Shown in pieces: positions 585-62,567 of a stretch of DNA of 64,000 nt. Made by a program: the position numbers and the translations under genes. Each line of letters opens with the position of its first letter. The first letter of the stretch is position 1. This stretch comes from Patescibacteria group bacterium. Lineage in GTDB: Bacteria; Patescibacteriota; Microgenomatia; UBA8517. The stretch lies in assembly GCA_022562395.1 (NCBI GenBank), contig JADFPI010000001.1:1456-65455 (forward strand), read 5' to 3'. The notes below the pieces were generated by a model. The model did no database searches, was not told where the DNA came from, and was given only the letters and a program-made list of their open reading frames with translations.

Positions 585-604
585 CAACTTTCTAATCTGT
601 CCAT

Positions 605-613
605 ATTTTAGCA
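605..613 (-). promoter_or_regulatory. Extended -10 promoter (rc TGCTAAAAT) for AbrB-like copy 1
   Basis: Plus strand reads attttagca; one of seven copies of the motif in the 1-5.4 kb islet. Confidence 0.5.
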
Positions 614-638
614 GAATTGGAGATTAGAGGTTATTTTT

Positions 639-965
639 CTAGGAATTCTGGGCCAAATGGGCCGCGACTTGTGCAACATTAATTGCGTTTACTCCCCAAC
701 GTATTAGATTCCCAATTCTAATAGCTTTTTCGTAAGAAAATGACAACCGGCTACCGGATGCCTTACTCAACGCATATGATCCAATTAACAATGCCGTAAC
801 TCCTGTACTAACTATGGCAGCTGTGTAAAATTCACCACCTTCAGCATATTTGTCTGCGGCAAAGCCTATTTCCTTAAAGCCCAGGCTTGAGTGGGCATAG
901 GTTGAAGTTACAACGTCCACTAAGTTAGCGGCAAAAAAGGAGGTCATTAACGCTTTCTCTTTCAT
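639..965 (-). CDS. hypothetical protein (108 aa)
   Basis: ORF with TGCTAAAAT -10 (979-987) about 14 nt upstream of the ATG and no SD. No recognisable family. Confidence 0.45.
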   Translation of the reverse strand: MKEKALMTSFFAANLVDVVTSTYAHSSLGFKEIGFAADKYAEGGEFYTAAIVSTGVTALLIGSYALSKASGSRLSFSYEKAIRIGNLIRWGVNAINVAQVAAHLAQNS

Positions 966-977
966 AATAATTGGTGG

Positions 978-1051
978 TATTTTAGCACGAAATTAAATTT
1001 TGTGATGTGGATATGAAGTCAAGAGTGTCGAGAGGTCGGACCTCTAAATTG
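978..1051 (-). repeat. Conserved ~74-bp promoter-proximal element (copy a), containing the TGCTAAAAT -10 and an AGAGGTC-G-GACCTCT hairpin
   Basis: About 90% identical to 5337..5411. The hairpin lies at 1031-1045. Confidence 0.7.
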
Positions 1052-1156
1052 TTTCAGATAGAAATAAAATATAATATGTGTTACTATATTAACATCACTA
1101 GGGAGAAACGAACGCTTGACTACGTGTCATGTCGCAACGCCTCCCACTTTTTTTGG

Positions 1157-1690
1157 TTAAATTTTAAGCTTCTCTCTCTCAAATTCTATAAAAGTTTTAT
1201 ATTTATGAAATCGCTTCAATAAAGATGACTCTGATTTTGAATTAGGAATTACGATACGAAGTAACTTTTTCTTTTTCTCTAAGTATTCGTGCAAACAATA
1301 AAAATCGCCGTCTCCTGATACTATTACTGCTCTATCATATTTCGGATACTGAATTGTTGCCGCATGTAAAACCAGCTCTGCGTCAACATTTCCTTTAGGT
1401 TTGCCCAAATTATCCTTGACTGTTGGTTTGAATACCAATTCATAACCGTAAGATTTTAAACGCCCGTAAAGCCTTCGGTTCTGTTTGATATAGCCTATGA
1501 AAAGGAAGGCTTTTTTGACACGAAATTTATCAGCTAAATATATCCTGAATTTTTTGAAATCTAGCTTCCACCCTCTATAAATTAACCTTTTGTTCCTATA
1601 AATATTCTTACTGGTGCCGAGGTTCAAATTTTGGCTATCGATGAAGGCATATATTGCTGGTCGTTTTTTGTTTTTGGAAAGTTTCGCCAT
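1157..1690 (-). CDS. NYN/LabA-like (PIN-related) domain protein, putative RNase
   Basis: IYAFIDSQNL, VDAELVLHAA and VIVSGDGDF motifs typical of NYN/LabA (DUF88). Leaderless with TGCTAAAAT -10 at 1700-1708. The 23-mer cattctggccgtattttagcacg is identical to the one before the protease gene at 5326-5348. Confidence 0.65.
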   Translation of the reverse strand: MAKLSKNKKRPAIYAFIDSQNLNLGTSKNIYRNKRLIYRGWKLDFKKFRIYLADKFRVKKAFLFIGYIKQNRRLYGRLKSYGYELVFKPTVKDNLGKPKGNVDAELVLHAATIQYPKYDRAVIVSGDGDFYCLHEYLEKKKKLLRIVIPNSKSESSLLKRFHKYKTFIEFEREKLKI

Positions 1691-1772
1691 TCTGGCCGTA
1701 TTTTAGCACGCTAAACACTTACGCGTAACGTGGCGAGCCACTTTCTTGAAGCTAAGCAGAGTAAAAAGATTT

Positions 1773-1976
1773 TTACTTCTTCTTGCCCTGAGATTTCCGA
1801 ACGGGCCAATCCACGATAGTAATTTTCTTCCCCCGAAGCCGGACTACCACCTTTTGCCTCTCGCGCCAGCGAAGTTTGCGCATAATTTCAATCGGTAGGG
1901 TTAAGCCGAGGCTTCGTCCGCCGCCCATTCTTGTTAGTTTCCTTATATTTTTTTCGCTTAATTTTCTTCTGGCCAT
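1773..1976 (-). CDS. AbrB/MazE/SpoVT-family small DNA-binding protein (copy 2)
   Basis: 67 aa, 63/67 identical to the 332..535 product. Confidence 0.6.
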   Translation of the reverse strand: MARRKLSEKNIRKLTRMGGGRSLGLTLPIEIMRKLRWRERQKVVVRLRGKKITIVDWPVRKSQGKKK

Positions 1977-1981
1977 TTTAA

Positions 1982-2001
1982 CTACTGAATTAATTCAGTA
2001 G
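1982..2001. promoter_or_regulatory. Palindrome CTACTGAATTAATTCAGTAG (copy 2 operator candidate)
   Basis: Exact palindrome in the leader of 1773..1976, followed by an extra TTAATTCAGTAG half-site. Confidence 0.6.
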
Positions 2002-2058
2002 TTAATTCAGTAGCAATTTTCTAATCTGCCTGTATTTTAGCACAGGCGAAGAATTTGG

Positions 2059-2604
2059 TTATTTTTTGATACTCACTTCAAGTGCGTCGGAGCCGACATC
2101 GTGTGTTGTGCTTTTATATTTCCCGCTTTCGCGCACATATTCCAGGAAGTCGCCCATGTCTTCTTTAAATATTTTTACATTATCCGCAACCACAACCGCT
2201 CCGTTTTGTAAGTTTCCTTCCGCCAGTTTTAAGTAATCCAAATAGTCTTCTTTCGCCGCATCAATGAACATAAAATCAAATGTAGCTGAAAGTGTTGGAA
2301 TCAGCTCTTTTGCGTAGCCTACCTTTATTTCAACTCTATCTTCAAACCCTGCTTTTTTAATATTCTCCCGGGCAATTTCTGCATTTTCCGGATCAACTTC
2401 AATAGTGACTATTTTTGTATTTGCACCAACCGCTTCAGCCATTAGTATTGCAGAATACCCCACATACGTCCCAATCTCTAAAATCCTTTTTGGCTTTTTG
2501 TCTTTAACCACATCCACAAGGACTTTACCTTTTTTAGGTCCGACAAGCATAATATGCCCCTCTGACTCAATTTTTTCTATTACTTTTTTTGCTGCGCTAC
2601 TCAT
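2059..2604 (-). CDS. class I SAM-dependent O-methyltransferase (caffeoyl-CoA OMT / YrrM-TrmR-like family)
   Basis: ILEIGTYVGYSAI is the SAM-binding motif I; FDFMFIDAAKEDY is typical of family-3 O-MTases. A TGCTAAAAT -10 at 2666-2674 leaves an about 60-nt leader. Confidence 0.75.
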   Translation of the reverse strand: MSSAAKKVIEKIESEGHIMLVGPKKGKVLVDVVKDKKPKRILEIGTYVGYSAILMAEAVGANTKIVTIEVDPENAEIARENIKKAGFEDRVEIKVGYAKELIPTLSATFDFMFIDAAKEDYLDYLKLAEGNLQNGAVVVADNVKIFKEDMGDFLEYVRESGKYKSTTHDVGSDALEVSIKK

Positions 2605-2700
2605 ATATTTATTACTTTCTACCGAGCTGGCAAGTTTTTCTTTGTCATACCCAAATTCTGCCCGTATTTTAGCACGGTTTTTAGGCTGAGGCGAAGGCGT

Positions 2701-2982
2701 TTAATTGAGATTTGTAGGTTTGTGTTTTAGCTCAGGAGGAAGAGAAACATTGTGGTGGTAAAGACCCATGAAAATTCTGTCGTAAACATCCGGGTCAATG
2801 CCACCAACCTCATCAACACAAGCTTCTATGTTCTTTTTCTGTTCTACTAAATACCTAGCCGCCTTTTCAACCTCTTCAGGAGAGTGTCTCCCGCGGAAAG
2901 CAATAACCCTCCAGGCTTTTTCACTGTATTGGGAGCCTTTTTTAGCAGTTTCAATCTGCTCTGGCGATAATCTTTCTCTCAT
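2701..2982 (-). CDS. hypothetical protein (93 aa)
   Basis: ORF with TGCTAAAAT -10 (2989-2997) 6 nt before the ATG, so leaderless. Confidence 0.45.
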   Translation of the reverse strand: MRERLSPEQIETAKKGSQYSEKAWRVIAFRGRHSPEEVEKAARYLVEQKKNIEACVDEVGGIDPDVYDRIFMGLYHHNVSLPPELKHKPTNLN

Positions 2983-3133
2983 ATGTATATTTTAGCACGG
3001 AAAGTAAAGCTCGACCGTGGACGAATCTGACAGAAAAATCGAGGGATAATTTACAAGGCAATTGGCCGATTTTTGTGTCTAACTAATATTTAGGCCTTTT
3101 AATGGCAATGATTGTTATCTGCATCTTTCTCTG

Positions 3134-3277
3134 TTACTCAACTGTGTACGGGGGCAACTTATATTTCCCCTTCTCCAGCGCTTTCAAATCCCTGTCGGAC
3201 AGATTAAAAGTTTCTTTCAAATATTTATCCTGCTTCTGCAAAGTAGTAGATTGAACTACTGGCTTTGAATCTTTCAT
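3134..3277 (-). CDS. possible small ORF (47 aa; MKDSKPVVQSTTLQKQDKYLKETFNLSDRDLKALEKGKYKLPPYTVE)
   Basis: Found by manual translation of the minus strand; below the ORF-track size cut-off. No clear SD or promoter. Confidence 0.2.
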   Translation of the reverse strand: MKDSKPVVQSTTLQKQDKYLKETFNLSDRDLKALEKGKYKLPPYTVE

Positions 3278-3350
3278 ATTTTTTAACTATTTAAAAAATC
3301 GGTTAGTTTTTACAGCTTTTCTCAGCAAGGCAAATGGCCGATTATTATGG

Positions 3351-3773
3351 CTAGTGTATCTTTCCGTTAGTGGGAAAGAGTCTTTCGAGTTTGCATTTCT
3401 CTCTATTGCTTAACCCCGGCATTGTTAAATGTATAAAAAATTGTTTCCAGTTTCTTCCGGTAGCTATCAATACTCGTTCGTCGTTTATTATTTTTATTCC
3501 TTCCCACTTATCTTCGTCTTTTGTTATTATCAGCAAATTTTCCCGCCCGTAAATGTTTCTGTAATCCAAACTATATCTTTCTTCTTCTCCGCGGTAGGAT
3601 TCTATTTCCGGTTCGTAAAGCGCGGTTCCGGAAATATCCACTCCTTTCACCTTTCTGTAACTTACAAATAGGACGTTAAAAGGAAAATCATTAAGTTCAG
3701 GCCTATCCTCGATATTTAAATTGTGGGGTATAAACGCGAAACGGTTTTTATATATAAATGTTTCAGCTATCAT
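3351..3773 (-). CDS. hypothetical protein (140 aa) under SAM-I riboswitch control
   Basis: ORF with a strong SD (AGGGAGGTGA) immediately after the riboswitch terminator. No recognisable family. Confidence 0.55.
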   Translation of the reverse strand: MIAETFIYKNRFAFIPHNLNIEDRPELNDFPFNVLFVSYRKVKGVDISGTALYEPEIESYRGEEERYSLDYRNIYGRENLLIITKDEDKWEGIKIINDERVLIATGRNWKQFFIHLTMPGLSNREKCKLERLFPTNGKIH

Positions 3774-3798
3774 TTATATCACCTCCCTTCTAAGTCAC

Positions 3799-3824
3799 GA
3801 AAAAACCTCTCCCGAAAGAGAGGT
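3799..3824 (-). terminator. Intrinsic terminator of the SAM-I riboswitch (GACCUCUC-UUUCGG-GAGAGG + U6)
   Basis: 6-bp GC-rich stem with a 6-nt loop, followed by TTTTTT on the minus strand. Confidence 0.8.
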
Positions 3825-3968
3825 CAAATCTTTGCCAACAAAAAATCGGCCAAATCTTTCCCTTCCGGGCTGGACTTGGCACCGTTTTCCTTCGACTTTA
3901 CTCAGGACCGGTTGCCGGGTGGGTCATTGAGCCAGTACTCTCGCCACCACTCTTGATTTATTGCCTTA
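3799..3968 (-). promoter_or_regulatory. SAM-I (S-box) riboswitch: aptamer (about 3847-3962) plus terminator expression platform
   Basis: Minus-strand RNA matches the S-box consensus. It has AUCAAGAG, then GGUGGCGAGAG-UACUGGCUC (P2 with k-turn-like GA), AAUGACCCACCCGGCAACC, GGUGCCAAGUCC (P3), CCCGGAAGGG (P4 GGAA tetraloop) and GAAAGAUUUGG (P1 3' strand). It is preceded by a TGGTATAAT promoter and followed by a terminator and SD. No ORF lies inside. Confidence 0.85.
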
Positions 3969-3974
3969 CGACTA

Positions 3975-3983
3975 CATTATACC
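3975..3983 (-). promoter_or_regulatory. Extended -10 (rc TGGTATAAT) driving the SAM-I riboswitch transcript
   Basis: Plus strand reads attatacca. The TSS is predicted about 7 nt downstream. Confidence 0.55.
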
Positions 3984-4002
3984 ACACCTTTTTGAGGCTG
4001 AA

Positions 4003-4048
4003 TTTGCCAGAAGTCCTTCGGCAGGCTCAGGATTAAAATCCCTCGGCA
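4003..4048. repeat. Two 21-bp direct repeats (tccttcggcaggctcaggatt / tccctcggcacactcaggatt) separated by aaaa
   Basis: 18/21 identical. They lie between the protease stop and the riboswitch promoter. Confidence 0.6.
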
Positions 4049-4051
4049 CAC

Positions 4052-5329
4052 TCAGGATTGGTCTGCATAGAACCATTCCCAGGAAGGTTCTTCTACCTCC
4101 TTAATCTTGCTTCGATTCATTTTATAAACCCCATCCTCTAAAACTGTCTGCCAGGTACCTTCATAGTAATGATAATCTACTTCTTCGTCATTCCAGTTTT
4201 TTGTTGAAAATTTAACAAAAGCAGTATCGTCGGTATTTTCGTGGGGCTCGGAAATATAAATCTCAACGTCAAGAATATCGGTGAACCTATTTGTCCACTC
4301 CTCAAAATTCGTTTTTTCAAGGTATTTACTAGATAAAAGCGCAAATCCATCCTCCATCCTCCGTGCCTTTAAATAAGTATAAAAAGCTCTAACCGCCTCT
4401 TCCGGGGAAACCGACGGATCTACTTCGATTTTAGTGATTTCGCTGTCGGTAAATTCAGCCGATAGCCCTTCTATCCAATTGGCAGGAATAAATAAAGATA
4501 AACCCGCCAGACCAAGGGTATTCACTCCTACAACTTTACCGCATATATCCACCAGAGGGCCCCCACTCATTCCTTCAACAAGATTTATATCTGTTTGGAT
4601 ATAAGCGGTGCCGGCCGATTTTTGCTCTCTGAACGAGACGTACTCACCTTTTTGGATAGTTGCTTCACCGGCTAAATCTGTTCCCAAGGCGTAACCGGCA
4701 GCAATAAGCTTTTCTCTGTCGTAAAAAACAAGTGGGTCCATCATCTCAAGGACTAAATCCGGATAGTTTTCTTTCGTAAATAAAATGGCAAGGTCATAAT
4801 ATTGGGTACCGGTAATTGTTTCCGGTGTAGCGAAGCTGCCGTCTGAAAAGATTATTTTCGGACTCGGTTCGCCGGCAATGACGTGGAAGTTGGTAAGAAC
4901 CTGATTCTCGGATATAAAAAAGCCCGACCCTTCGGAGTAGCCGCCGACTATCCTTACTACCGAATCTTTAAGTTTTTGGTCCACCCCGTATCCGCACAAG
5001 AATTTAGAGTAGTGTCCGTAGTTTGTTTGGATGTAGTCAACAATGACAAAGAGCGATGCAAAGATATAGATAACCAGTGCCGTTATAAATATCGACTTCA
5101 GAAAGTTTTTCAAACTTCTAAAAGGAAAGGTTATAGTTTCAAAAAATATTTTTATTAATGAAATTAGGGTTTTTATAAAAAACTTAATAATGTAGTAAGT
5201 TGAGTAAGTGATTGTTTTTACTGGGAAAAGATATAGGGGAAAAAGAAGCCGTTTGACGTAATTTTTGAATCTTAAATAAAGCTCGGAGATTCTTTTCTTA
5301 ACGTTTCGCTTAATCCTACCCACCTTCAT
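4052..5329 (-). CDS. membrane-anchored trypsin-like serine protease (S1C/HtrA-like)
   Basis: N-terminal TM segment. Catalytic triad contexts are TNFHVI (His), YDLAIL (Asp) and GMSGGPLV (Ser). Leaderless with TGCTAAAAT at 5339-5347. Confidence 0.8.
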   Translation of the reverse strand: MKVGRIKRNVKKRISELYLRFKNYVKRLLFPLYLFPVKTITYSTYYIIKFFIKTLISLIKIFFETITFPFRSLKNFLKSIFITALVIYIFASLFVIVDYIQTNYGHYSKFLCGYGVDQKLKDSVVRIVGGYSEGSGFFISENQVLTNFHVIAGEPSPKIIFSDGSFATPETITGTQYYDLAILFTKENYPDLVLEMMDPLVFYDREKLIAAGYALGTDLAGEATIQKGEYVSFREQKSAGTAYIQTDINLVEGMSGGPLVDICGKVVGVNTLGLAGLSLFIPANWIEGLSAEFTDSEITKIEVDPSVSPEEAVRAFYTYLKARRMEDGFALLSSKYLEKTNFEEWTNRFTDILDVEIYISEPHENTDDTAFVKFSTKNWNDEEVDYHYYEGTWQTVLEDGVYKMNRSKIKEVEEPSWEWFYADQS

Positions 5330-5336
5330 TCTGGCC

Positions 5337-5411
5337 GTATTTTAGCACGAAATTAGATTTTGTAATGTGGAGATGAAGTCAAGAGTGTCAAGAGGTCGGA
5401 CCTCTACATTG
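5337..5411 (-). repeat. Conserved ~74-bp promoter-proximal element (copy b)
   Basis: About 90% identical to 978..1051. The hairpin agaggtcggacctct lies at 5391-5405. Confidence 0.7.
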
Positions 5412-6284: not shown

Positions 6285-6293
6285 TGATATAAT
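6285..6293 (+). promoter_or_regulatory. Extended -10 TGATATAAT for the pepE-like gene (leaderless, ATG 6 nt downstream)
   Basis: Sequence tgatataat at 6285-6293; ATG at 6300. Confidence 0.55.
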
Positions 6294-6299
6294 TCAGAC

Positions 6300-6929
6300 A
6301 TGAAACAGCTATTTCTTACTTCCGGTGTCCATGCGGTAGCACACGATATTTCTAAAAAAGTCGACCTTTCTAAAGGCAACAAGCTTGTATTCATTGATAC
6401 CGCTGCAGAGGGTGAAAAGGGAGACAAGCAGTGGCTTAAAAACGACAGGAAAGCACTTGTAGATGCTGGGTTTGAAGTTGCGGACTACTCAATCACAGGT
6501 AAATCAAAGGACGAACTAGAAACTTACCTTCCGAAATTCGACTATATTTATCTCTCGGGCGGTAATACCTCTTACCTTTTACAGCAATCACAAAAGTCGG
6601 GGTTTATTCCTGTAATAAAAGACCTGGTTCTCAAAAAAGGAAAAACATACATTGGCACCAGTGCAGGCTCAATAATTGCCGGCCCGGTGCTACCTGTTTA
6701 TTTACTGGATGACAGCGAGGATATAAAACTAGATGACCCGAAAGGGTATGGTTTTGTTAATTTTACAATTTTGCCGCACTGGGGTTCTGAAGACTTCAAA
6801 AAGATGTATTTAGGGAAAAGATTAGAAACCGTATACAAGGAAGACCAAGTACCGTTACTACTTCTGACGGACAACCAATACGTTCATGTCCGAAACGACC
6901 AAGTGAAGATTGTTGATGTAAACGGTTGA
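6300..6929 (+). CDS. pepE: peptidase S51 (dipeptidase E-like)
   Basis: YIGTSAGS nucleophile-Ser motif and overall PepE-like layout. Confidence 0.65.
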   Translation: MKQLFLTSGVHAVAHDISKKVDLSKGNKLVFIDTAAEGEKGDKQWLKNDRKALVDAGFEVADYSITGKSKDELETYLPKFDYIYLSGGNTSYLLQQSQKSGFIPVIKDLVLKKGKTYIGTSAGSIIAGPVLPVYLLDDSEDIKLDDPKGYGFVNFTILPHWGSEDFKKMYLGKRLETVYKEDQVPLLLLTDNQYVHVRNDQVKIVDVNG

Positions 6930-12547: not shown

Positions 12548-12567
12548 TCTGTTAAAATCCTAAAGAA

Positions 12568-13608
12568 ATGAAGAAATTTCCCTTTTTCGTTTTTCTGCTA
12601 ATCATTGTTGCGGTTCTTGTAGGGGTTTTAGGTGCGAGTTGGTGGAAGACCAACATAAAGGCTCCGTCACGCGAAGCTTCAATTGAGAGATTTGTTATTC
12701 CCAAAGGCTATTCTGCTTCCCAAATAGGAAATAGATTGTTTGAGCAGGGATTTATTAAAAATTCTCTGGCTTTCAAGTTTTATGTACAAGTCACCGGAAA
12801 AGCGGAAAAAATTCAAGCAGGTGAATTCACCCTGAGCCAGAACTTTTCATTGATTGAGGTGGTCGAAAGATTAACGGGCGGACCGGAGGAACTTTGGATT
12901 ACAATTCCGGAAGGGTTACGGCGAGAGGAGGTAGTCGAAAGAGTGATAGAAAGCCTGGAATTGGAGCCAGGAAAAGCCACCGTTTTTCGTAAGGAGTTTT
13001 TGGCTGAAACGGATGGTAAAGAGGGATTTTTATTTCCAGATACTTATCTGTTCCCCGGGGACATTGTGGCAAGTGTCGTTGTAGAAAAACTTGAAAGAAC
13101 TCTAGACAATAAAATTAGCGAATTTGCGGGTGCGATCTCTTCAAGCGGATATTCTGAAAAGGAGATTATTACCCTTGCGTCGATTATTGAGAGAGAAACT
13201 AAGACTGATAAAGAAAGGCCGGTTGTTGCCGGAATACTTTTTAATAGGCTTAAAATAGGGATGGCATTGCAAGTAGATGCCACGGTTCAATACGCGGTTG
13301 CAAATGTCAAATGTCAAATGTCCCCGGCCTCGCCAAGCGAAGCGGGGCGGGTAAATGTTAAATGTGGTGACTGGTGGCCGACATTGACGAAACAAGATTT
13401 GAAGATAGATTCACCTTACAATTCGTACAAATTTACCGGCTTACCTCCCGCTCCAATTGCCAATCCCGGAGTTTCTTCAATTCGCGCCGTTATATTCCCT
13501 GAAGATAGTGATTATTTGTATTATATCCACGATTCCGGGGGCAACATTCATTATGCGAAAACGCTAGAAGAACATAATGAGAATGTAAGAAGATATTTGG
13601 GTAAGTAG
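12568..13608 (+). CDS. mltG: endolytic murein transglycosylase MltG/YceG-like
   Basis: N-terminal TM, FVIPKGYSASQIGNRLFEQGFI, LASIIERETK and YNSYKFTGLPPAPIANPG motifs. Contains an in-frame (caaatgt)x3 microrepeat at 13298-13320. Confidence 0.8.
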   Translation: MKKFPFFVFLLIIVAVLVGVLGASWWKTNIKAPSREASIERFVIPKGYSASQIGNRLFEQGFIKNSLAFKFYVQVTGKAEKIQAGEFTLSQNFSLIEVVERLTGGPEELWITIPEGLRREEVVERVIESLELEPGKATVFRKEFLAETDGKEGFLFPDTYLFPGDIVASVVVEKLERTLDNKISEFAGAISSSGYSEKEIITLASIIERETKTDKERPVVAGILFNRLKIGMALQVDATVQYAVANVKCQMSPASPSEAGRVNVKCGDWWPTLTKQDLKIDSPYNSYKFTGLPPAPIANPGVSSIRAVIFPEDSDYLYYIHDSGGNIHYAKTLEEHNENVRRYLGK

Positions 13609-13617
13609 TTTTTCTTC

Positions 13618-13645
13618 TTGACAGGGTCAAAAGTGTGTGTATAAT
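13618..13645 (+). promoter_or_regulatory. Near-consensus sigma70 promoter TTGACA-N16-TATAAT upstream of rpoB
   Basis: -35 at 13618-13623 and -10 at 13640-13645 with an upstream GTGTG. Confidence 0.65.
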
Positions 13646-13675
13646 TTCCCTAGGCGTACGCAACGGTACGCAGAA

Positions 13676-13698
13676 CCCCCGTTTAACGGGGGAATTTT
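13676..13698 (+). promoter_or_regulatory. rpoB leader hairpin CCCCCG-tttaa-CGGGGG + AATTTT (attenuator-like)
   Basis: 6-bp GC stem followed by a U-rich tract, in the 5' UTR. A second hairpin GCGTAC-gcaacg-GTACGC lies at 13654-13671. Confidence 0.5.
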
Positions 13699-20978: not shown

Positions 20979-21464
20979 ATGCCTACTGTATCACAATTAG
21001 TAAGACATGGCAGGAAAAAGCCAGTAAAAAAGGTGAAAAAAGCTGCCTTGAGGCGCTGGTTTTCTGCAAAAGACAGAAAGTTTGGAGAATACACCTCTCC
21101 CTTTAAGCGGGGGGTGGTACTTTCCGTAAGAACGATGACTCCCAAAAAGCCGAATTCTGCACTAAGAAAAGTAGCCCGAGTGAGACTTTCCAACAAACAA
21201 GAGGTAACGGTTTATATTCCCGGAGAAGGACACGAGTTGGCCGAGCACTCCATTGTTCTTGTTCGCGGAGGAAGAGTCAAAGATTTACCGGGGGTGAAGT
21301 ATCAGGTAGTCCGTGGAACATACGACACCGCGGGTGTTGTAGGAAGAAAGACCTCAAGAAGCCGTTACGGGACGAAGAAAGGTGGGGTTATAGCTCCCGC
21401 TTCCACGCCAACTGAAGTAGAAAAATCTGATGAGACACCCGAAACTAAATCAACCACGACCTAA
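20979..21464 (+). CDS. rpsL: 30S ribosomal protein S12 with a ~30-aa C-terminal extension
   Basis: Starts [14 protein letters not shown]. Track ORF 20931 begins upstream with no SD and is rejected. Carries a C-terminal [22 protein letters not shown] tail. Confidence 0.9.
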
Positions 21465-21485: not shown

Positions 21486-21965
21486 ATGCCAAGAAGAGGA
21501 TCAGTTAGAAAAAGAAAAGAAAGCGGCGACCCAATTTACAAAAACAGGCTGGTCGCCAAACTTATAAATAGAAGTATGCGCGACGGTAAAAAAAGCGTCA
21601 TCCAGAAACAAGTCTACAAGGCGCTTGATTTGGTTAAGGAAAAGGAAAAAGACGACCCGATAAAAATTTTTTCCCGGGCGCTTGATAATATCAAGCCAAC
21701 GATGGAGGTTAGACCGAGGCGAGTCGGAGGAGCCGCTTATCAAGTTCCAATGCCTGTAAGAGGCTCAAGGCGCGAATCTCTGGCAATCCGTTGGCTCATT
21801 TTTGCAGCTCGTGCCCTGCCAAATTCTGAATATCACACGTATGCTGAAAAGTTAGCCTTCGAGATTATGGAGGCTGCAAAAAAGGAAGGCGGGGCAGTTA
21901 AAAGGCGCCGAGATATGGAGCGTATGGCAGAGGCCAATAGAGCGTTTGCTCACTTTCGCTGGTAA
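21486..21965 (+). CDS. rpsG: 30S ribosomal protein S7
   Basis: MPRRGSVRKRK...LVAKLINRSMRDGKKS. Confidence 0.95.
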   Translation: MPRRGSVRKRKESGDPIYKNRLVAKLINRSMRDGKKSVIQKQVYKALDLVKEKEKDDPIKIFSRALDNIKPTMEVRPRRVGGAAYQVPMPVRGSRRESLAIRWLIFAARALPNSEYHTYAEKLAFEIMEAAKKEGGAVKRRRDMERMAEANRAFAHFRW

Positions 21966-21968
21966 GGC

Positions 21969-22154
21969 TCAAATGCTCTTTTTTGGTCCTTCCTCTATTT
22001 CCACATCGCCCGATATCTCAACTTTCTTGAAGTGTTGGCCGTAGTGGGTACAATCTTTTGTTTGGCAGACGTGCGCCCCTGCGTCGTGCTCCTCTTGGCT
22101 TACCTCTGCCTTACAAGTACCCGCACAAACGTACTTGACTTTCTTTTCTTCCAA
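21969..22154 (-). CDS. small Cys-rich protein (about 61 aa; CxxxC...CxxxxC, putative zinc ribbon) antisense within the str operon
   Basis: TTG start at 22154, preceded by a perfect SD AGGAGG (22164-22169) and an extended -10 TGGTATAAT (22182-22190). Product MEEKKVKYVCAGTCKAEVSQEEHDAGAHVCQTKDCTHYGQHF.... Track ORF 21969..22202 extends upstream of the SD. Confidence 0.55.
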   Translation of the reverse strand: MEEKKVKYVCAGTCKAEVSQEEHDAGAHVCQTKDCTHYGQHFKKVEISGDVEIEEGPKKSI

Positions 22155-22181
22155 AAAATTCACCTCCTTAACTTGATAGAA

Positions 22182-22190
22182 ATTATACCA
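22182..22190 (-). promoter_or_regulatory. Extended -10 (rc TGGTATAAT) for the small Cys-rich gene
   Basis: Plus strand reads attatacca. Confidence 0.55.
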
Positions 22191-22307
22191 GACTATCCGC
22201 AAGCGCCTGTATTCTCGCCCACTTCAGGTCGTAAGCGTGTGTTGATTTAATACTTATTGACTGGTAAAATCCTTCAAGGAAGCGAGAGGCCGCGTACCAT
22301 GCGGTTA

Positions 22308-22332
22308 CACGGTAAGCTTCCGTGTTTTTTTT
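22308..22332 (+). terminator. Intrinsic terminator-like hairpin CACGG-taagctt-CCGTG + T8, 34 nt upstream of fusA
   Basis: 5-bp stem followed by eight T. Confidence 0.6.
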
Positions 22333-22365: not shown

Positions 22366-24528
22366 ATGCCTGCACAACAACATAAGAAAAAATCGGCCAT
22401 GGTTATGACGACCACCAAGGACCGTGATGTCCCCATGGAGTTAATCCGAAATATTGGGATTATTGCCCATATTGATGCAGGAAAAACAACCACCACCGAG
22501 CGGATTCTTTTTGAAACCGGAAAAACTTACAAGCTCGGCTCGGTTGACGAAGGAACGACGGTAACTGATTGGATGGAGCAGGAGCGAGAGCGAGGAATTA
22601 CCATAGTATCGGCCGCGATTACTACTTTTTGGGAGCTTAAAAAGGGTGGGGTAGTAAATAAAGGTCGTTATCGAGTAAATATTATTGATACTCCAGGACA
22701 CATTGATTTTACGGCCGAGGTTGAGAGAAGTTTAAGGGTTTTAGATGGAGCCATCATGGTTTTTGACGGACGTACCGGAGTAGAAAGTCAGTCCGAAACC
22801 GTTTGGAGGCAGGCCGACCGCTACGGTGTTCCTCGTATGTGTATTTTAAATAAACTGAATCTTATTGGCGCAGACTTCGAAGGAAGTATTGCTTCAATTA
22901 AAGAGAGATTGGGCGCAAACGCGGCCCCAATTCAAGTCCCAATAGGCTTGGAACATGGTCTTCGCGGGGTTGTCGACTTAGTAACCATGAAAGCCTACAC
23001 CTACAAAGGGATTGAGGATAATAAATTACGCGAAGTTGAAATTCCCCAAGAAGTTATGGCGACTTCAAAAAAATACCGACAAGAGCTAATTGAAAAAGCG
23101 TCTGAGTACGACGATGTTGCCCTGGCGAAATATTTAGAAGGGAAGGAGCCGACAGAGATTGAACTTAAGCGGGCGATAAGAGTAGGGGTAATATCGGGTA
23201 AATTCTTCCCAGTTTTAGGTGGAGATAATCGGACCGTCTTTGTTCAACTTTTACTCGACGCCGTAGTAGAGTATCTTCCGTCGCCCATTGATTTACCGGC
23301 AGCAGAAGGTGAAAATCCAAAAACCGGCAAGAAGGAGACTCGTGAGCCTAAAAACGACGCCCCTTTTTCGGCACTATCTTTTAAGGTTGTTACCGACCCG
23401 CATGTCGGACGACTCGTTTATTTAAGAATTTATTCTGGCAAGCTCAAATCCGGAGAGAAGGTTTACAATGCAACGAAACAAAGAACCGAAAGAGTCGGGA
23501 AACTTGTACTTCTCCACGCCGACCAGAGAGAGCTACTCGACGAGGCATATGCAGGAGAGATAGTTGCCGCCGTTGGAATAAAGGACACGACAACAGGCGA
23601 TACTGTTTGCGACATTAACTACCCGATTTTATTCGAGTCGATTAGATTTCCTGAGCCGGTTATCTCTTTGGCGATAGAGCCGGCTACCAAAGCAGACCAA
23701 GAGAAAATGGGCCTAGCCTTGAAGAAACTCTCTGACGAGGATCCGACCTTTAAGATTAAGTCGGACCAAGAAACAGGACAAACTATAATCTCCGGAATGG
23801 GAGAACTGCAGCTCGAGATTTTGGTCGACAGGATGAAGCGAGAGTTTGGTGTTACGGCAAGAACTGGAAAGCCCCAAGTAGCCTACAAAGAAACAATTAA
23901 AAAGATATCAACCGGTGAGGGTAAGTATATCAGACAAACCGGAGGCAGAGGACAGTACGGCCATTGTTTTTTAAGAATTGAGCCTTTGGGCCGTGGAGAA
24001 GGATACAAGTTTGAATCAGAAATTAAAGGTGCAGCAATTCCATCTGAGTTTATTCCCTCGATTGAAAAAGGAGTCCGCGGAAAGATGGAAAAGGGTATTT
24101 TGGCGGGATATCCGATGACGGATATGAAAGTTATTGTTTATAACGGAACATTTCATGAAGTTGACTCCTCCGACATTGCCTTCAAAATCGCCGGCTCGCT
24201 TGCATTAAGTGAGGCTGCCAAGGGAGCGGACATGGTTCTTTTGGAGCCAATCATGAAGGTTGAGGCGACCACGCCGGAGGAGTTCATGGGAGATATTATC
24301 GGAAACCTATCAGCAAAAAGAGCCCAAATCCAGGGCACAGAAAAGAAAGGTAATTTGATTATAATTTTAGCCCTTGCGCCTTTGGCCGAACTTGCCGGTT
24401 ACGCTACTAAAATTCGCTCAATTTCCCAGGGAAGAGCCTCTTTCTATATGGAGCCTAGTCACTACGAGGAAGTGCCTAGTAACATCGCCGAAAAATTAAT
24501 AGAAAGTAAAGGTGACGATAGAAATTAA
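22366..24528 (+). CDS. fusA: elongation factor G
   Basis: AHIDAGKTTTTE G1 motif, DTPGH and a full domain layout. Confidence 0.95.
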   Translation: MPAQQHKKKSAMVMTTTKDRDVPMELIRNIGIIAHIDAGKTTTTERILFETGKTYKLGSVDEGTTVTDWMEQERERGITIVSAAITTFWELKKGGVVNKGRYRVNIIDTPGHIDFTAEVERSLRVLDGAIMVFDGRTGVESQSETVWRQADRYGVPRMCILNKLNLIGADFEGSIASIKERLGANAAPIQVPIGLEHGLRGVVDLVTMKAYTYKGIEDNKLREVEIPQEVMATSKKYRQELIEKASEYDDVALAKYLEGKEPTEIELKRAIRVGVISGKFFPVLGGDNRTVFVQLLLDAVVEYLPSPIDLPAAEGENPKTGKKETREPKNDAPFSALSFKVVTDPHVGRLVYLRIYSGKLKSGEKVYNATKQRTERVGKLVLLHADQRELLDEAYAGEIVAAVGIKDTTTGDTVCDINYPILFESIRFPEPVISLAIEPATKADQEKMGLALKKLSDEDPTFKIKSDQETGQTIISGMGELQLEILVDRMKREFGVTARTGKPQVAYKETIKKISTGEGKYIRQTGGRGQYGHCFLRIEPLGRGEGYKFESEIKGAAIPSEFIPSIEKGVRGKMEKGILAGYPMTDMKVIVYNGTFHEVDSSDIAFKIAGSLALSEAAKGADMVLLEPIMKVEATTPEEFMGDIIGNLSAKRAQIQGTEKKGNLIIILALAPLAELAGYATKIRSISQGRASFYMEPSHYEEVPSNIAEKLIESKGDDRN

Positions 24529-24538
24529 GTTTTGCTTA

Positions 24539-24568
24539 TTGACAGTTTAATTCGTGCCTAGATATAAT
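24539..24568 (+). promoter_or_regulatory. Consensus promoter TTGACA-N17-(A)TATAAT for tuf
   Basis: -35 at 24539-24544 and -10 at 24563-24568. Confidence 0.65.
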
Positions 24569-24576
24569 ACGAACAT

Positions 24577-24593
24577 ACCGCGTCTGGCGCGGT
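24577..24593 (+). promoter_or_regulatory. tuf leader hairpin ACCGCG-tctgg-CGCGGT followed by a T-rich tract
   Basis: 6-bp stem in the 5' UTR. Confidence 0.4.
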
Positions 24594-24634
24594 TTAGTTT
24601 GTGATTAGGTATTGTTAAGTAATATAATAAAAAT

Positions 24635-26198: not shown

Positions 26199-26227
26199 TT
26201 GCCCCTTTGTGCTTCATTTGGTATACT
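26199..26227 (+). promoter_or_regulatory. Candidate promoter TTGCCC-N17-TATACT right after rpsJ
   Basis: -35-like at 26199-26204 and -10-like at 26222-26227. Weak. Confidence 0.3.
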
Positions 26228-26292
26228 TTGCCTAACGTGGAGTGGTTCGTCGTAAATAGCCACGATTAGTTTTTTAGGATGTGCCAATTCGA

Positions 26293-26314
26293 GGCGCCTC
26301 CGGCGCCTTTTTTT
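26293..26314 (+). terminator. Intrinsic terminator GGCGCC-tcc-GGCGCC + T7 between rpsJ and rplC
   Basis: Perfect 6-bp GC stem with a 3-nt loop, then TTTTTTT. Confidence 0.7.
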
Positions 26315-58612: not shown

Positions 58613-60421
58613 TTAGATTTTCCCCAGGTTCTTTGCGAGGGCGTTTGTTTCCTTGAGAAGAGTTTCAACTTCGGCGATGCCCTTTTCCCAGAAGTCTTTT
58701 TTTGAAATATCGATGCCAAGCTTTTTGAAACTGTCCTTAGGGGATTCGGACAGCCCCACCGAAAGGAATTCTTTTACAGCACCTATAAATTTGGAATCTT
58801 TTTTGACTTCGGCTTGCATGGTTTTTGAGATTAGTAGGCCTCCGGCATAGGAGTAAACGTAGAAGAAAAAGCGAATATGTTGCCAGTGTACCCACCAGTT
58901 TTCAGAGCCAGGGGATTGCAGCACGTAAGGGCCCATGTACGAATCCATATGTTTCTGAAACGTTTTGCCGATTTCTTCCTTGCTTAGATAACCCCTCTCT
59001 CGAAAAGTTTTATGCAACTCGGTTTCAAAGTTATAAAGGGCGATCTGCCTAAAGATTGTTTTTACGTCTTCGTCGAGTTTATTGACCATTAAAGCAAGCC
59101 TGGTTTCCTTGTCAGCCCTTTTTAACAATTCTTGAAATACAAAGTCTTCCATAAATGTACTCGCAACTTCTGCCGTTGACCTGGGTGTGCCAAAATTGAG
59201 CGCGTTTTGTTTTCTGCGAATGAGCTCAAAGTTTATTCCGTGTCCGAGTTCGTGTGCAAAAGTTAGAACGTCTTTGAGCATGTTTGTCCAATTGAGAAGT
59301 AAAAAGGTCGGCTGGGACAAGAGTGTGTAGGCTGTAAAAGCTCCACTACGCTTTCCACTTCTAGGGTAAACGTCGACTCTGCCCTCATTTACAAAGTCTG
59401 AGAAGAGATTGCTGAAATCTTTATCTAGGTTTTTGTATACGCTTTCAATTATTGAAACGGCGTCTTTATAAGAATATTTCGCTTCGATTTTGCCGTATTC
59501 AACGAGCCTTTCGTGATACTCCAACTTTTTAACTCCTAGAAGTTTTGCTTTGAGCTTGTAATGATGCATTGCTACGTCAAAGTGTGAAGATACAGAGCTC
59601 ACTAGTGTGTCGACAGTGTCGGTGTCGACGTCGTCTGAAATGTGGCGATCAGTATCTGCTCTTTCGTAATTACGCAATCCGTCGTCTATTTTTTTGTTTT
59701 GCAGTACGGCGTTTAACTCATGCTCTGCTGTATCGGTATGACTTGCTAAAATGTCGTTGAATGCATTAGCGGCAGAATTCCGAACTCTTTTGTTCCTAGA
59801 ACCCATTAACCCCAGGATGTCAGAGAAACTCTTCTTGTCCTTTCTCCTTTTTTCATTTAATATCATCCTTTCTTCCTTAGACAAAAATCCAGAAGTCATT
59901 TTTGTCCAGTTGTCGTGAGCCACGGGGGATTTTAGATTCATTATTTTTTCTTCTGGCTCGGTGAGTAGGTGTTTCGCCTGCAAAAACAGTCTCTCCAAAA
60001 AGTGTTTATAGGGCATTAGTGGTTTGTAGTTTAAAAACTGGCTTTGTTGACGGGGATCGATCTTCGCAAGCCTTAACTCGAAAAATTGAATTTGATTTTG
60101 CATTTTTTTAACAAATTCTATTGATTTATTGTATTTGGCTTTGAGTTTTGGAGCGTTTTGGTCTTGTGAGGTTTTTAGCGAGTAATAGTAGTGTTCGCCG
60201 CCTTTGGGATCAAAATTTTTTCTCCAATCTTCGTATTCGCTTAGCGCTGCAAGTAATACTTTTGGTTTTTTAAGGTAATCGTCTCTGTTCTTCCACTTCT
60301 TTACAAACTGGCTAGTTTTCTTCTCGGTTATCTTTCTGAGTTTTTGGATTTCTGTGTCATTCTCTGATTTGAATAAAAGAGTTAGGTCCCAGGAGGTTCT
60401 ATTAGCTTTTAGTTTTGCCAT
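58613..60421 (-). CDS. pepF: oligoendopeptidase F (M3B family)
   Basis: HELGHGINFE HExxH zinc site and an overall M3B layout. Confidence 0.85.
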   Translation of the reverse strand: MAKLKANRTSWDLTLLFKSENDTEIQKLRKITEKKTSQFVKKWKNRDDYLKKPKVLLAALSEYEDWRKNFDPKGGEHYYYSLKTSQDQNAPKLKAKYNKSIEFVKKMQNQIQFFELRLAKIDPRQQSQFLNYKPLMPYKHFLERLFLQAKHLLTEPEEKIMNLKSPVAHDNWTKMTSGFLSKEERMILNEKRRKDKKSFSDILGLMGSRNKRVRNSAANAFNDILASHTDTAEHELNAVLQNKKIDDGLRNYERADTDRHISDDVDTDTVDTLVSSVSSHFDVAMHHYKLKAKLLGVKKLEYHERLVEYGKIEAKYSYKDAVSIIESVYKNLDKDFSNLFSDFVNEGRVDVYPRSGKRSGAFTAYTLLSQPTFLLLNWTNMLKDVLTFAHELGHGINFELIRRKQNALNFGTPRSTAEVASTFMEDFVFQELLKRADKETRLALMVNKLDEDVKTIFRQIALYNFETELHKTFRERGYLSKEEIGKTFQKHMDSYMGPYVLQSPGSENWWVHWQHIRFFFYVYSYAGGLLISKTMQAEVKKDSKFIGAVKEFLSVGLSESPKDSFKKLGIDISKKDFWEKGIAEVETLLKETNALAKNLGKI

Positions 60422-60708
60422 GTAGGGATTTTAACATAAAAAGAGCCCGGTAGAAGACATCTCTCCAGACAGTTATAAGTTTTCATAGATCTATTTACAT
60501 TCAACTCTACACGCGCGATCGCCTACAAATAGTTGAGGCTATTTGAGAGAAAGAAATTATTTTTATTGGGAGAACCGTATTTATCAATTTCTTGAAGTGC
60601 AACCTTTTCAGCTTTTTAAGCAACCTCTTTATATCTTTTAACTTCAAATATTGTCGTGAATGTCCGAAAGTACTGTAACCTTCATGCTAAAGTCTATTAT
60701 GCCGAAAC

Positions 60709-60736
60709 TTGACAATCTTTATCAGAACATTATAAT
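60709..60736 (+). promoter_or_regulatory. Consensus promoter TTGACA-N16-TATAAT for the relB/yafQ-like pair (leaderless; ATG 9 nt after the -10)
   Basis: -35 at 60709-60714 and -10 at 60731-60736. Confidence 0.65.
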
Positions 60737-60745
60737 TATATTGCT

Positions 60746-61033
60746 ATGCAGAAGGTGATTGTACAGGTTCCAATGACTAAAAAATTAAGAGACGCCGCAA
60801 CTCGCGCTGCGAAAGATTCAGGTTTCTCGTCTTTACAGGAAGTAATTCGTTTGTTTACCACCAAGCTTGCCAAGAAGCAGGTTTCGATTGATATTTCTGG
60901 AGTGGAATATTTGACTCCCCAGGAAGATGCTATTTTGGAAAAGAGGTATAAAGAATTTCTAGCCGAGAAGAAGAAGGGTAAAACTTATAAAGCAACCTCT
61001 GCCAAGGAGATGATAAGGCAACTGACTTCTTAA
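60746..61033 (+). CDS. RelB/DinJ-like antitoxin (putative)
   Basis: 95-aa basic protein immediately upstream of a RelE/YafQ-family toxin; assigned by gene context. Confidence 0.5.
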   Translation: MQKVIVQVPMTKKLRDAATRAAKDSGFSSLQEVIRLFTTKLAKKQVSIDISGVEYLTPQEDAILEKRYKEFLAEKKKGKTYKATSAKEMIRQLTS

Positions 61034-61036
61034 TAG

Positions 61037-61312
61037 ATGGCCACAATCGAATACGACAGGAGGTTTAAGAAGCACTTCAAAACAAGAATTTTTCTCAATA
61101 GAAAACTTGCAAAAAGATATGAAGAACGACTGGATTTATTTTTGAAAGATAGACGTAATTCCATATTAAATGACCATAAGCTTGTTGGGAGGCTAGAAGG
61201 CACGAAAGCTTTTAATATTACCGGGGATATTAGAGTTATTTATGTCGAAGCATGAGACACAAGCTATGCTTATGTCGAAGTAGACAAGAACCACTTTATT
61301 TTTCTAGATATC
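61037..61312 (+). pseudogene. RelE/YafQ-family toxin interrupted by an in-frame 30-bp tandem duplication carrying a TGA stop (track ORF 61037..61255)
   Basis: HKLVGRLEGTKAFNITGDIRVIYVEA then stop. Removing 61251-61280 restores ...VIYVEVDKNHFIFLDIGTHPQIYGM, the expected RelE/YafQ C-terminus. The duplicated ttatgtcgaag is visible at 61240-61250 and 61270-61280. Confidence 0.6.
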
Positions 61313-61396
61313 GGCACCCATCCTCAAATTTATGGTATGTAGCTAGGGGGGAATTTCGCTTCAATTTAAACACAGGGTTTGGTAAAATACAACAAG

Positions 61397-61467
61397 CGGG
61401 GAGTAGTTTAGTGGTAGAATGTGCGCATGGGGTGCGTGCGGCCCGAGTTCGATTCTCGGCTCCCCGA
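61397..61467 (+). tRNA. tRNA-Pro (anticodon GGG)
   Basis: Manual fold gives acceptor CGGGGAG/CTCCCCG, anticodon loop AT-GGG-GT with U33 and G37, T-arm CCGAG-TTCGATT-CTCGG, discriminator A and no encoded CCA. The D-stem is weak (GU pairs). Confidence 0.65.
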
Positions 61468-61489
61468 CACTATAGGATTTTGATATTCC

Positions 61490-61773: not shown

Positions 61774-61781
61774 AGCCCCGA

Positions 61782-62423: not shown

Positions 62424-62567
62424 GAAGAAATTTTACCACAACCTTGAGCGAAATTGAGGTTATTAAAAGCTTCAAGAATACCCCGATTCAGTCGGGGATG
62501 AATTGAAGCTGTAACAATATCTTCCTTTACGACGAAGACGTACAGCTTTGCTGTAGAGGGGAAGATG

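Follow-up and report, generated by a model that had tools for sequence, protein, structure and literature searches.

A Small Four-Cysteine Protein Gene as Probable Old Cargo of an Insertion Hot Spot between rpsG and fusA in a Patescibacteria Bacterium

The rpsG–fusA Junction

The window considered here comprises 64,000 nucleotides (nt) of contig JADFPI010000001.1 (assembly GCA_022562395.1, forward-strand positions 1,456 to 65,455) from a Patescibacteria group bacterium. The region of interest is the junction between rpsG, encoding ribosomal protein S7, and fusA, encoding elongation factor G (EF-G), which is occupied by a minus-strand open reading frame (ORF) of 61 amino acids (aa). Taken as a whole, this junction is probably best explained by a functional gene for a four-cysteine (Cys4) protein, carried as old cargo of an insertion hot spot and lying next to a promoter–hairpin module of fusA that is ancestral.

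A Conserved Gene on the Minus Strand

The small gene (21969–22154, minus strand) is preceded by an extended -10 element, TGGTATAAT (22190–22182), with a poor -35 region, and by the Shine–Dalgarno sequence AGGAGG (22168–22163, inside AAGGAGGTG), which is separated by a spacer of 8 nt from the TTG start (22154–22152). The product begins MEEKKVKYVCAGTCKAEVSQEEHDAGAHVCQTKDCTHYGQHF, and the TGA stop codon (21971–21969) lies 3 nt from the stop codon of rpsG. When 55 gene starts of the window were checked, a full AGGAGG was found before two, those of the small gene and of one other, and AAGGAGGTG also occurs twice in the window. An earlier reading of this DNA from its letters alone (the sequence-only reading) had proposed an antisense gene with these three signals; all of them lie where it placed them, and they are conserved in orthologous loci.

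Related loci compared with the window are designated by L-numbers (L001, L004, L030 and so on). Orthologues of the small protein were found on metagenome contigs with identities of 97, 84, 80, 78, and 63%, and a sixth was reached through a closely related S7. In L001–L007 and L026, which cover seven diverged lineages, they lie between rpsG and fusA as well and run against both genes, so that the synteny and conservation asked for by the sequence-only reading are present. In the DNA alignment of the closer lineages the extended -10 element, an AAGGrGGTG Shine–Dalgarno sequence, and the TTG start are all conserved, with the -10 element kept as TGTTATAAT, TGATACAAT, TGGTACAAT or TGGTATAAT in L004, L005, L026, and L006. 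In the more distant L007, the gene starts with ATG and has no Shine–Dalgarno sequence.

The substitutions between the window and L004, counted by codon position of the minus frame, are 6, 5, and 22, and are thus concentrated at third positions, and the ratio of nonsynonymous to synonymous substitution rates (dN/dS, Nei–Gojobori) lies between 0.09 and 0.20 wherever dS is not saturated. Judged by this pattern, the minus-strand ORF is a real gene under purifying selection. The opposite view, that there is no gene and that the conservation stems from constraint on the 3' untranslated region of rpsG or from an antisense RNA, might draw on the shortness of the ORF, on its annotation only as "hypothetical protein", and on its overlap with the predicted rpsL–rpsG readthrough transcript, but it is effectively refuted by the low dN/dS, a wobble bias present in the minus frame only, the conserved Shine–Dalgarno sequence and start, and homologues at E values down to 1e-14 that occur in unrelated contexts with four invariant cysteines.

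The GenBank model of the gene (MCH7729912.1, IID21_00115, hypothetical protein) has 77 aa (21969–22202, minus strand) and begins at an upstream TTG that lies within the promoter and Shine–Dalgarno region. This start was rejected, since in-frame stops occur 5 codons (L004) and 2 codons (L006) upstream of the downstream TTG; it is thus the 61-aa start that has been conserved, and the deposited protein is longer than it should be. A plus-strand ORF at 22032–22250 was also rejected as a real gene. The wobble sites of the minus frame are first positions of this ORF, on which the changes would fall, and selection therefore does not act on its frame; Pfam gave no match for it either.

The Gap between rpsG and fusA as an Insertion Site

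The S7 and elongation factor Tu (EF-Tu) proteins of the window are identical to MCH7729911.1 and MCH7729914.1 of GenBank, assigned to a Patescibacteria (candidate phyla radiation, CPR) bacterium, and the closest named relatives by S7 are Microgenomates/Woesebacteria. Look-ups with the exact S7 returned same-species contigs only, all with the same gene layout; the contigs came from ENA assemblies ERZ234951xx and ERZ234867xx. Additional rpsG–fusA junctions were fetched through S7 homologues of 78–89% identity.

An empty site was found in L030–L033 (Microgenomates, S7 79%), where the TAA of rpsG is followed by 16 nt, the fusA promoter, a hairpin, and fusA, the gap of 95 nt containing the promoter–hairpin module alone. 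Because these relatives have an empty site, the small gene is regarded as an insertion, which bears out the proposal of the sequence-only reading that it had entered a normally contiguous junction. Other lineages carry other cargo. The gap is occupied by an unrelated gene of 119 aa in L027–L029 (S7 82%) and by unrelated genes of 122 aa and 120 aa in L034 (S7 78%). In L004, the small gene is accompanied by a Phd/YefM–PIN toxin–antitoxin pair (4145–4935 of that locus), which has its own TTGACT-17-TATAAT promoter straight after a copy of the rpsG end and whose PIN stop codon lies inside the next copy. A further gene stands upstream of the small gene in L006, and two genes of unknown function (295 aa and 427 aa) flank it in L007. 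All cargo is oriented opposite to rpsG, with the sole exception of these two L007 genes. On this comparative evidence, the interval from the rpsG stop codon to the fusA promoter is taken to be a gene-insertion hot spot in this lineage.

The cargo proteins of L027 and L007 gave no match against Pfam, NCBIfam, PADLOC, and PHROGs beyond two marginal PHROG matches of the L027 protein (E 0.02–0.08, function unknown), and no recombinase or integrase gene was found within or beside the cassettes in the loci examined. By S7 and EF-G identity, L007 lies outside the group formed by the remaining lineages, which includes L030 and L027, and the divergence of the small protein parallels that of S7 and EF-G. 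Most simply, these comparisons suggest that the small gene was acquired long ago, then lost in L030 and exchanged for other cargo in L027 and L034; that it was gained more than once may be an alternative. A literature search on rpsG–fusA in Patescibacteria, on rpsG as an integrase attB site, and on leaderless promoters of Patescibacteria returned nothing relevant.

Repeats of the rpsG 3' End

A copy of the final 21 nt of rpsG stands on either side of the cassette that holds the small gene. The proximal copy is the functional 3' end of rpsG itself, TTTGCTCACTTTCGCTGGTAA (21945–21965, plus strand; FAHFRW*), and the distal one, the degenerate CTCGCCCACTTCAGGTCGTAA (22214–22234, plus strand; LAHFRS*), forms the distal cassette boundary. 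The latter matches the true rpsG ends of L004 and L007, TTCGCCCACTTCAGGTGGTAA (FAHFRW*), at 19 of 21 nt, and by our own estimate the chance expectation for such a match in the window is about 6e-5. No second copy of the small gene or of the rpsG-end repeat was found elsewhere in the window.

Repeat copies were also observed in the related loci. Of the three in L004, one is the genuine end of rpsG and the other two precede the promoters of the small gene and of the toxin–antitoxin pair. L003, a strain variant, also has three, the first two (within L003 406–566) separated by a non-coding insert of 110 nt that terminates in an imperfect inverted copy of the repeat, and L026 has two (within 3960–4058), lying 52 nt of non-coding DNA apart. 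The distal copies (in the window, L003, L006, and both of those in L004) share the variant start CTCGCCC and lie directly upstream of the cassette promoter. No such repeats were found around the cargo of L027, L034, and L007.

A pattern of this kind would be the footprint expected where DNA integrates into the 3' end of a gene and accretes in tandem, or where such ends recombine with one another. Because no recombinase was seen and the cargo of three lineages lacks repeats, site-specific integration is given at best an even chance, and perhaps slightly less. The copies may instead have arisen by local duplication or illegitimate recombination during unrelated insertions, without serving as attachment sites. 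This explanation draws on the same two observations, the missing integrase and the repeat-free cargo, and on the extra copies in L003 and L026 being separated by merely 110 and 52 nt of non-coding DNA; the shared CTCGCCC start, placed exactly at the cassette boundary before the promoter, counts against it and looks like a reused junction. Local duplication is a serious contender, to which we give somewhat less than an even chance.

Genomic islands at the 3' ends of housekeeping genes, with direct repeats and tandem accretion, are well known from the staphylococcal cassette chromosome (SCC) elements at rlmH/orfX and from tRNA and tmRNA islands. The rpsG–fusA cassettes resemble them in that the 3' end of the target is duplicated at the junctions, the target gene stays intact, cassettes stand in tandem (L004, L003), and an empty site exists. 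They differ in that no recombinase was seen, the cassettes are of about 0.27–0.8 kb with their own promoter, the small gene has diverged with its host, and some cargo has no repeats. Integron arrays have an intI gene, attI, promoterless cassettes, and attC sites. Here, by contrast, no integrase was seen and a separate promoter follows the repeat immediately in every cassette; and unlike attC sites, the repeats are rpsG-end copies of 21–27 nt, in a comparison for which no dedicated attC search was made.

In a more far-reaching version of the integration reading, mini-cassettes of a kind not recognised before, without an integrase, would attach again and again at the terminal ~21 nt of rpsG in CPR (Microgenomates-like) bacteria, and each would bring one or two genes behind a repeat and a promoter. 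Such cassettes would pile up in tandem inside the str operon, mostly antisense to it, silenced by ribosomal-protein readthrough during growth and released when growth stops. We consider this scheme improbable; if it were true, the Cys4 protein, the Phd/PIN pair, and the other cargo would form a growth-rate-gated platform of accessory genes.

The Promoter–Hairpin–U-Tract Module Upstream of fusA

Beyond the distal repeat lies a predicted fusA promoter (22242–22270, plus strand), made up of TTGATT, 17 nt, and the extended -10 element TGGTAAAAT, and followed by a hairpin with a U-tract (22278–22332, plus strand), which was recognised from the fold, a terminator scan, and the relatives. The promoter hexamers and their spacing recur in L004, L005, L026, L027, L030, and L034 with diverged spacer sequences, and L007 has TTGCTC-N17-TGATAAAAT. 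A TTAATTAWC motif that stands before rpsL and fusA is only marginally enriched in the window (6 matches against 2.6 expected).

The minimum-free-energy fold of the window hairpin (-20.6 kcal/mol) uses an outer stem of GGAAGC (22278–22283) and GCTTCC (22316–22321). Its loop of 32 nt holds an inner hairpin (22290–22304) and an alternative CACGG/CCGTG pairing (22308–22324) that belongs to the hairpin (A)CACGG-TAAGCTT-CCGTG(T) at 22307–22325 of the plus strand. GTG and T8 (22325–22332) follow the outer stem, and 33 nt then remain to the fusA ATG. The sequence-only reading had called a terminator hairpin before fusA from the CACGG/CCGTG stem and the T8; the hairpin and its T-run are present and conserved as a structure, and that particular stem is only an alternative within the longer GGAAGC/GCTTCC hairpin. 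The promoter directly upstream of the hairpin, and the apparently ancestral nature of the module, had been missed.

Hairpins of different loci were compared directly, stem by stem. L030, L007, and L034 have GGAAGC-(4 nt)-GCTTCC followed by GTG or GG and T5–7, relative to which the 32 nt in the loop of the window are a lineage-specific insertion. GTCCGCC-TGA-GGCGGAC with T5 is found in L004, CTCGGGG-...-CCCGAG with T6 in L005 and L026, and CTGCTTCC-GGAA-GGAGGCAG with an interrupted TTTGTTTTG in L027. Four unrelated stem sequences are thus used across the lineages, with the pairing kept and a T-run after each. The relatives' hairpins reach -10 to -25 kcal/mol with z-scores of -3.1 to -3.5, and most are bare hairpins of 16–20 nt. 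In the window the hairpin begins 7 nt past the -10 element, at about +1 of the predicted fusA mRNA, and this distance is 7–9 nt in every lineage. A stable GC-rich stem-loop, a U-tract directly behind it, and conservation of the structure while the stems change are the sequence features of a terminator, and all of them were observed. No Rfam family was found in or around the gap, either at the gathering score or at E ≤ 1. Since it is also present at the empty site, the promoter–hairpin–U-tract module is older than the insertion, and on this comparison we take it to be ancestral and not part of the inserted cassette.

Two other roles of the hairpin have to be weighed against termination. It may do no more than stabilise the 5' end of the fusA (and tuf) mRNA, in which case transcription of rpsL–rpsG would pass on into fusA and the str operon would be one unit with internal promoters. 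Known protective 5' stem-loops occupy such a position near the mRNA 5' end, and the start 7–9 nt after the -10 element in every lineage agrees with this, as does the weak, interrupted U-tract of the tuf hairpin. A pure stabiliser, however, needs no U-tract, and 5–8 uninterrupted T follow the fusA hairpin in nearly every lineage (L027, with its interrupted run, excepted) despite the differing stems, so that we think a purely stabilising role rather unlikely. Still less weight is given to a regulated attenuator, such as a riboswitch or ribosomal-protein leader, that would tune fusA–tuf, as the sequence-only reading had suggested among its options. The hairpin does sit between promoter and fusA, and the two pairings possible in the window (GGAAGC/GCTTCC and CACGG/CCGTG) are mutually exclusive, but the leaders of L030, L007, L034, L004, and L027 are bare hairpins of 6–9 bp at about +1, without alternative structure or room for a sensor, and the extra 32 nt of the window are confined to its lineage. 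As most versions are bare hairpins and no Rfam match was obtained, regulated attenuation is very unlikely.

The tuf Module and Related Arrangements

A second module of the same design precedes tuf (24539–24603, plus strand). It consists of TTGACA-18-TATAAT (24539–24568), a hairpin ACCGCG-TCTGG-CGCGGT 8 nt later (24577–24593), and the U-rich tail TTTAGTTTGTG. This module is conserved with compensatory stem changes in L004, L026, L027, and L030, its general form being TTGACA-17/18-TATAAT, a hairpin 7–11 nt later, and a TTTAGTTTG tail; in L007 a similar hairpin and T-run follow a TACAAT -10 element.

Hairpins behind promoters were also observed at two further genes of the window. Before rpoB (13618–13692, plus strand), TTGACA-16-TATAAT is followed by CCCCCG-TTTAA-CGGGGG, 30 nt from the -10 element, and before rplC (26199–26309, plus strand), TTGCCC-17-TATACT is followed by an 8-bp GC hairpin and T5, 63 nt from the -10 element. 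These two hairpins lie further from the -10 element than those of fusA and tuf.

Protective 5'-terminal stem-loops of bacterial mRNAs are known from the ompA, aprE, and ermC leaders. Like these and like intrinsic terminators, the fusA element is a GC-rich hairpin with a U-tract after a transcription unit and within a few nt of the next predicted mRNA 5' end. Unlike them, one element here appears to combine both roles, and the promoter lies upstream of the terminator and not downstream of it. The E. coli str operon, rpsL-rpsG-fusA-tufA, has secondary tufA promoters; the window shares with it the gene order rpsL-rpsG-fusA-tuf and extra promoters for the downstream elongation-factor genes, and differs in that the rpsG/fusA and fusA/tuf junctions each have a promoter–hairpin–U-tract module and in that the rpsG/fusA gap accepts foreign genes.

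Family, Predicted Fold, and Probable Metal Binding of the Small Protein

A profile built from the orthologues and searched against 1.84 billion representative proteins retrieved 45 proteins at E ≤ 1e-3, and the same family appeared as 57 clusters in an indexed database of 5.8 billion. The members, nearly all of 42–80 aa, come from CPR bacteria, DPANN archaea, and metagenome contigs; the few with a named source belong to a Candidatus Spechtbacterales bacterium and a Woesearchaeota archaeon, and all are annotated "hypothetical protein". They share the core Y-V-C-x-G-x-C-x-A-x-[IV]-[ST]-x-E-E-[YHF]-x-x-G-x3-C-[GQ]-x3-C-x3-G-x-P-F, in which Cys10, Cys14, Cys30, and Cys35 are invariant and Tyr8, Gly12, and Gly26 are conserved in at least 90%; the mini-proteins matching it span 42–75 aa. 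The cysteine spacing C-x3-C-x15-C-x4-C is constant across 47 aligned members. The C-terminal tails vary, being acidic in the window protein and in L007 and rich in Cys and His in several others (for instance ...GCGCC, ...CEHCDNCAMC or CxxC...HxH), a variation that suggests metal binding.

The small protein gave no match against Pfam, NCBIfam, PADLOC, and PHROGs, and a profile search against PDB sequences returned chance matches only, such as BPTI and ZIC3. An AlphaFold2 model contains strands at residues 5–9, 17–19, and 43–48 and a helix at 20–25, with a predicted local distance difference test (pLDDT) score above 90 in the core. The fold matches to this model are weak and none is significant; all are zinc modules (NOB1, SIRT1/2, HypA, Rbx1, PolD). 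The protein is small and has no signal peptide, and its invariant cysteines form two pairs that appear to sit in loops flanked by short predicted strands. In these respects it resembles Cys4 zinc mini-domains of the zinc ribbon, treble-clef or RING-like kind (HypA, Rbx1, SIRT2, NOB1), and such modules supply its only fold matches, all of them weak. The spacing is CxxxC and CxxxxC, that is, not that of two CxxC-type zinc knuckles, and significant similarity in sequence or structure to described zinc-ribbon families was not found. Consequently, of the Cys-rich, zinc-ribbon-like protein of the sequence-only reading, the Cys-rich mini-protein with four invariant cysteines stands and the zinc-ribbon label is no more than a fair guess; the homology and structure search that had been proposed for it led to an undescribed family, with no match to a described one and no significant fold. 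As far as can be judged from sequence and model, the product is a cytoplasmic Cys4 mini-protein of a new, undescribed sequence family, of a general kind already known, and a single metal ion, likeliest zinc, is most probably bound by its four cysteines. A role as type I toxin was rejected as unlikely, the protein being charged and not hydrophobic.

Distant members of the family are neighboured by NiFe-hydrogenase genes, by SpoU, acylphosphatase, and nickel superoxide dismutase genes, or by polysaccharide-synthesis genes. A scan of metagenomes returned distant members only, beside polysaccharide-synthesis genes, and a scan of genome contigs with the close alignment gave a single match, which was spurious and came from a high-GC genome (L011). 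Nickel-related genes are found close to two of these distant members, both with Cys-rich tails: L008 has NiFe-hydrogenase subunits, and L009 has nickel superoxide dismutase together with its peptidase. These neighbours could hint at a metal-handling role, although the observation is anecdotal.

The neighbourhoods also bear on whether the small protein is a translation-related factor, for instance a ribosome-associated zinc protein, kept near rpsG and fusA for its function. In favour of such a role, the gene stays at the junction across lineages with S7 identities as low as 63–65%, and its tail-to-tail arrangement, with stop codons 2–3 nt apart, is conserved. The unrelated contexts of the distant members, which never include ribosomal genes, nevertheless argue against an obligatory link to translation. 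Moreover, L030 lacks the gene, L027 and L034 have unrelated genes in its place, and similarity to ribosomal proteins was not found. A translation factor is accordingly considered an unlikely explanation, and we retain the view of an old cargo gene for a Cys4 protein.

Predicted Transcription of the Junction

According to the proposed model, the small-gene cassette would bring its own extended -10 promoter, a strong Shine–Dalgarno sequence, and a weak TTG start. The hairpin and U-tract of fusA would end transcription arriving from rpsL–rpsG, possibly from as far as the rpoB promoter, and the same hairpin would give the fusA mRNA, begun 7 nt upstream, a protective 5'-terminal stem-loop. From the end of rpsG to 22278 the terminator scan found no terminator-like site on the plus strand, nor did it find one on the minus strand downstream of the small gene within rpsG or rpsL. 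Wherever the small gene abuts rpsG, the stop codons are 2–3 nt apart. Since in the window they are 3 nt apart with no terminator between, the two transcripts would overlap if both promoters fire: that of rpsL–rpsG would be antisense to the whole small gene before terminating at 22278–22332, and that of the small gene would run into rpsG, antisense to it. The convergent, overlapping transcription put forward by the sequence-only reading thus follows from the anatomy, in which the stops lie 3 nt apart and 22278–22332 is the first plus-strand terminator-like site, and is to be taken as a deduction from it.

Antisense coupling of convergent genes is known from overlapping 3' untranslated regions and from "excludon"-type arrangements. 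The window resembles these in having convergent genes with stops 3 nt apart and no terminator between, and a regulatory consequence here is read from the genes alone. It might be transcriptional interference or an RNA duplex, so that the small protein would be lowest when ribosomal-protein transcription is highest, in fast growth. The preference of the cargo for the opposite strand would fit such insulation. Termination, 5' stabilisation, antisense coupling, and the mechanism of integration are all steps that we infer from the arrangement of the locus.

Several points weigh against the overall interpretation of an old Cys4 cargo gene next to an ancestral fusA module. A recombinase gene was not seen in any locus, and the parallel divergence of small protein and host agrees better with long vertical residence than with present-day mobility. 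The cargo without repeats in L027, L034, and L007 implies that the hot spot need not rely on one site-specific mechanism. For the protein, the cysteine spacing is unlike that of canonical zinc knuckles, the fold matches fall short of significance, and metal binding is deduced only; the unrelated contexts of distant members leave the neighbourhood without a consistent functional clue. Finally, the promoters, the transcription start site, termination, and the antisense overlap are all predictions, and a terminator at +1 to +55 of the fusA transcript would stop fusA too unless promoter-proximal polymerases read through it.

General Promoter Pattern and Other Features of the Window

The -10 element of the small gene belongs to a wider pattern. 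The window contains 19 copies of TGNTAWAAT where 7.0 ± 2.7 would be expected; most closely precede a gene start, usually 6–13 nt before the start codon, and from this distribution the motif is taken to be the general -10 element of this genome. In many genes, an extended -10 element TGNTAAAAT ends 6–13 nt before the ATG, with no Shine–Dalgarno sequence (600–5350, minus strand; 6285–6300, plus strand; 12550–12568, plus strand; 58613–62440, minus strand). Seven minus-strand copies of TGCTAAAAT lie between 605 and 5347, and two genes have the identical upstream string GTGCTAAAATACGGCCAGA-ATG. Because these elements stand 6–13 nt before the starts, many mRNAs appear to be leaderless, which suggests that leaderless mRNAs are widespread in this genome.

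An S-adenosylmethionine (SAM, S-box) riboswitch was detected at 3849–3962 of the minus strand (48.9 bits, against a gathering score of 44.4), with TGGTATAAT before it at 3984–3976 and an ORF of 140 aa of unknown function (3773–3351) after it. In the str operon, the rpsG gene (21486–21965, plus strand, from the ORF list) encodes an S7 of 159 aa, and fusA (22366–24528, plus strand, from the ORF list and the related loci) encodes an EF-G of 720 aa. Ribosomal protein S12 (20979–21464, plus strand) is unusually long, with about 161 aa counted from an MPTVSQL start; a basic segment is inserted close to its N-terminus, its C-terminal tail is acidic and rich in Thr, and its length among the related loci is 156–177 aa.

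Implications for CPR Bacteria

The locus is a modest example of an insertion hot spot in a core operon, and none of it is revolutionary. Sequence comparison defines a widespread family of mini-proteins with four cysteines, not described before, that is shared by CPR bacteria and DPANN archaea, organisms whose small proteins are almost wholly uncharacterised, and it corrects the GenBank gene model from 77 to 61 aa. The rpsG–fusA junction appears as a recurrent insertion site in a CPR clade, with cargo mostly on the opposite strand and, in some lineages, with repeats of the rpsG end, which makes it a useful place to study the uptake and tolerance of foreign genes within the core operons of ultra-small genomes. 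The compact design of promoter, hairpin at +1, and U-tract is conserved before both fusA and tuf. If the hairpin indeed both terminates the upstream transcript and caps the downstream one, this would be a simple means of insulating and stabilising highly expressed genes, in organisms with almost no known transcription biology.

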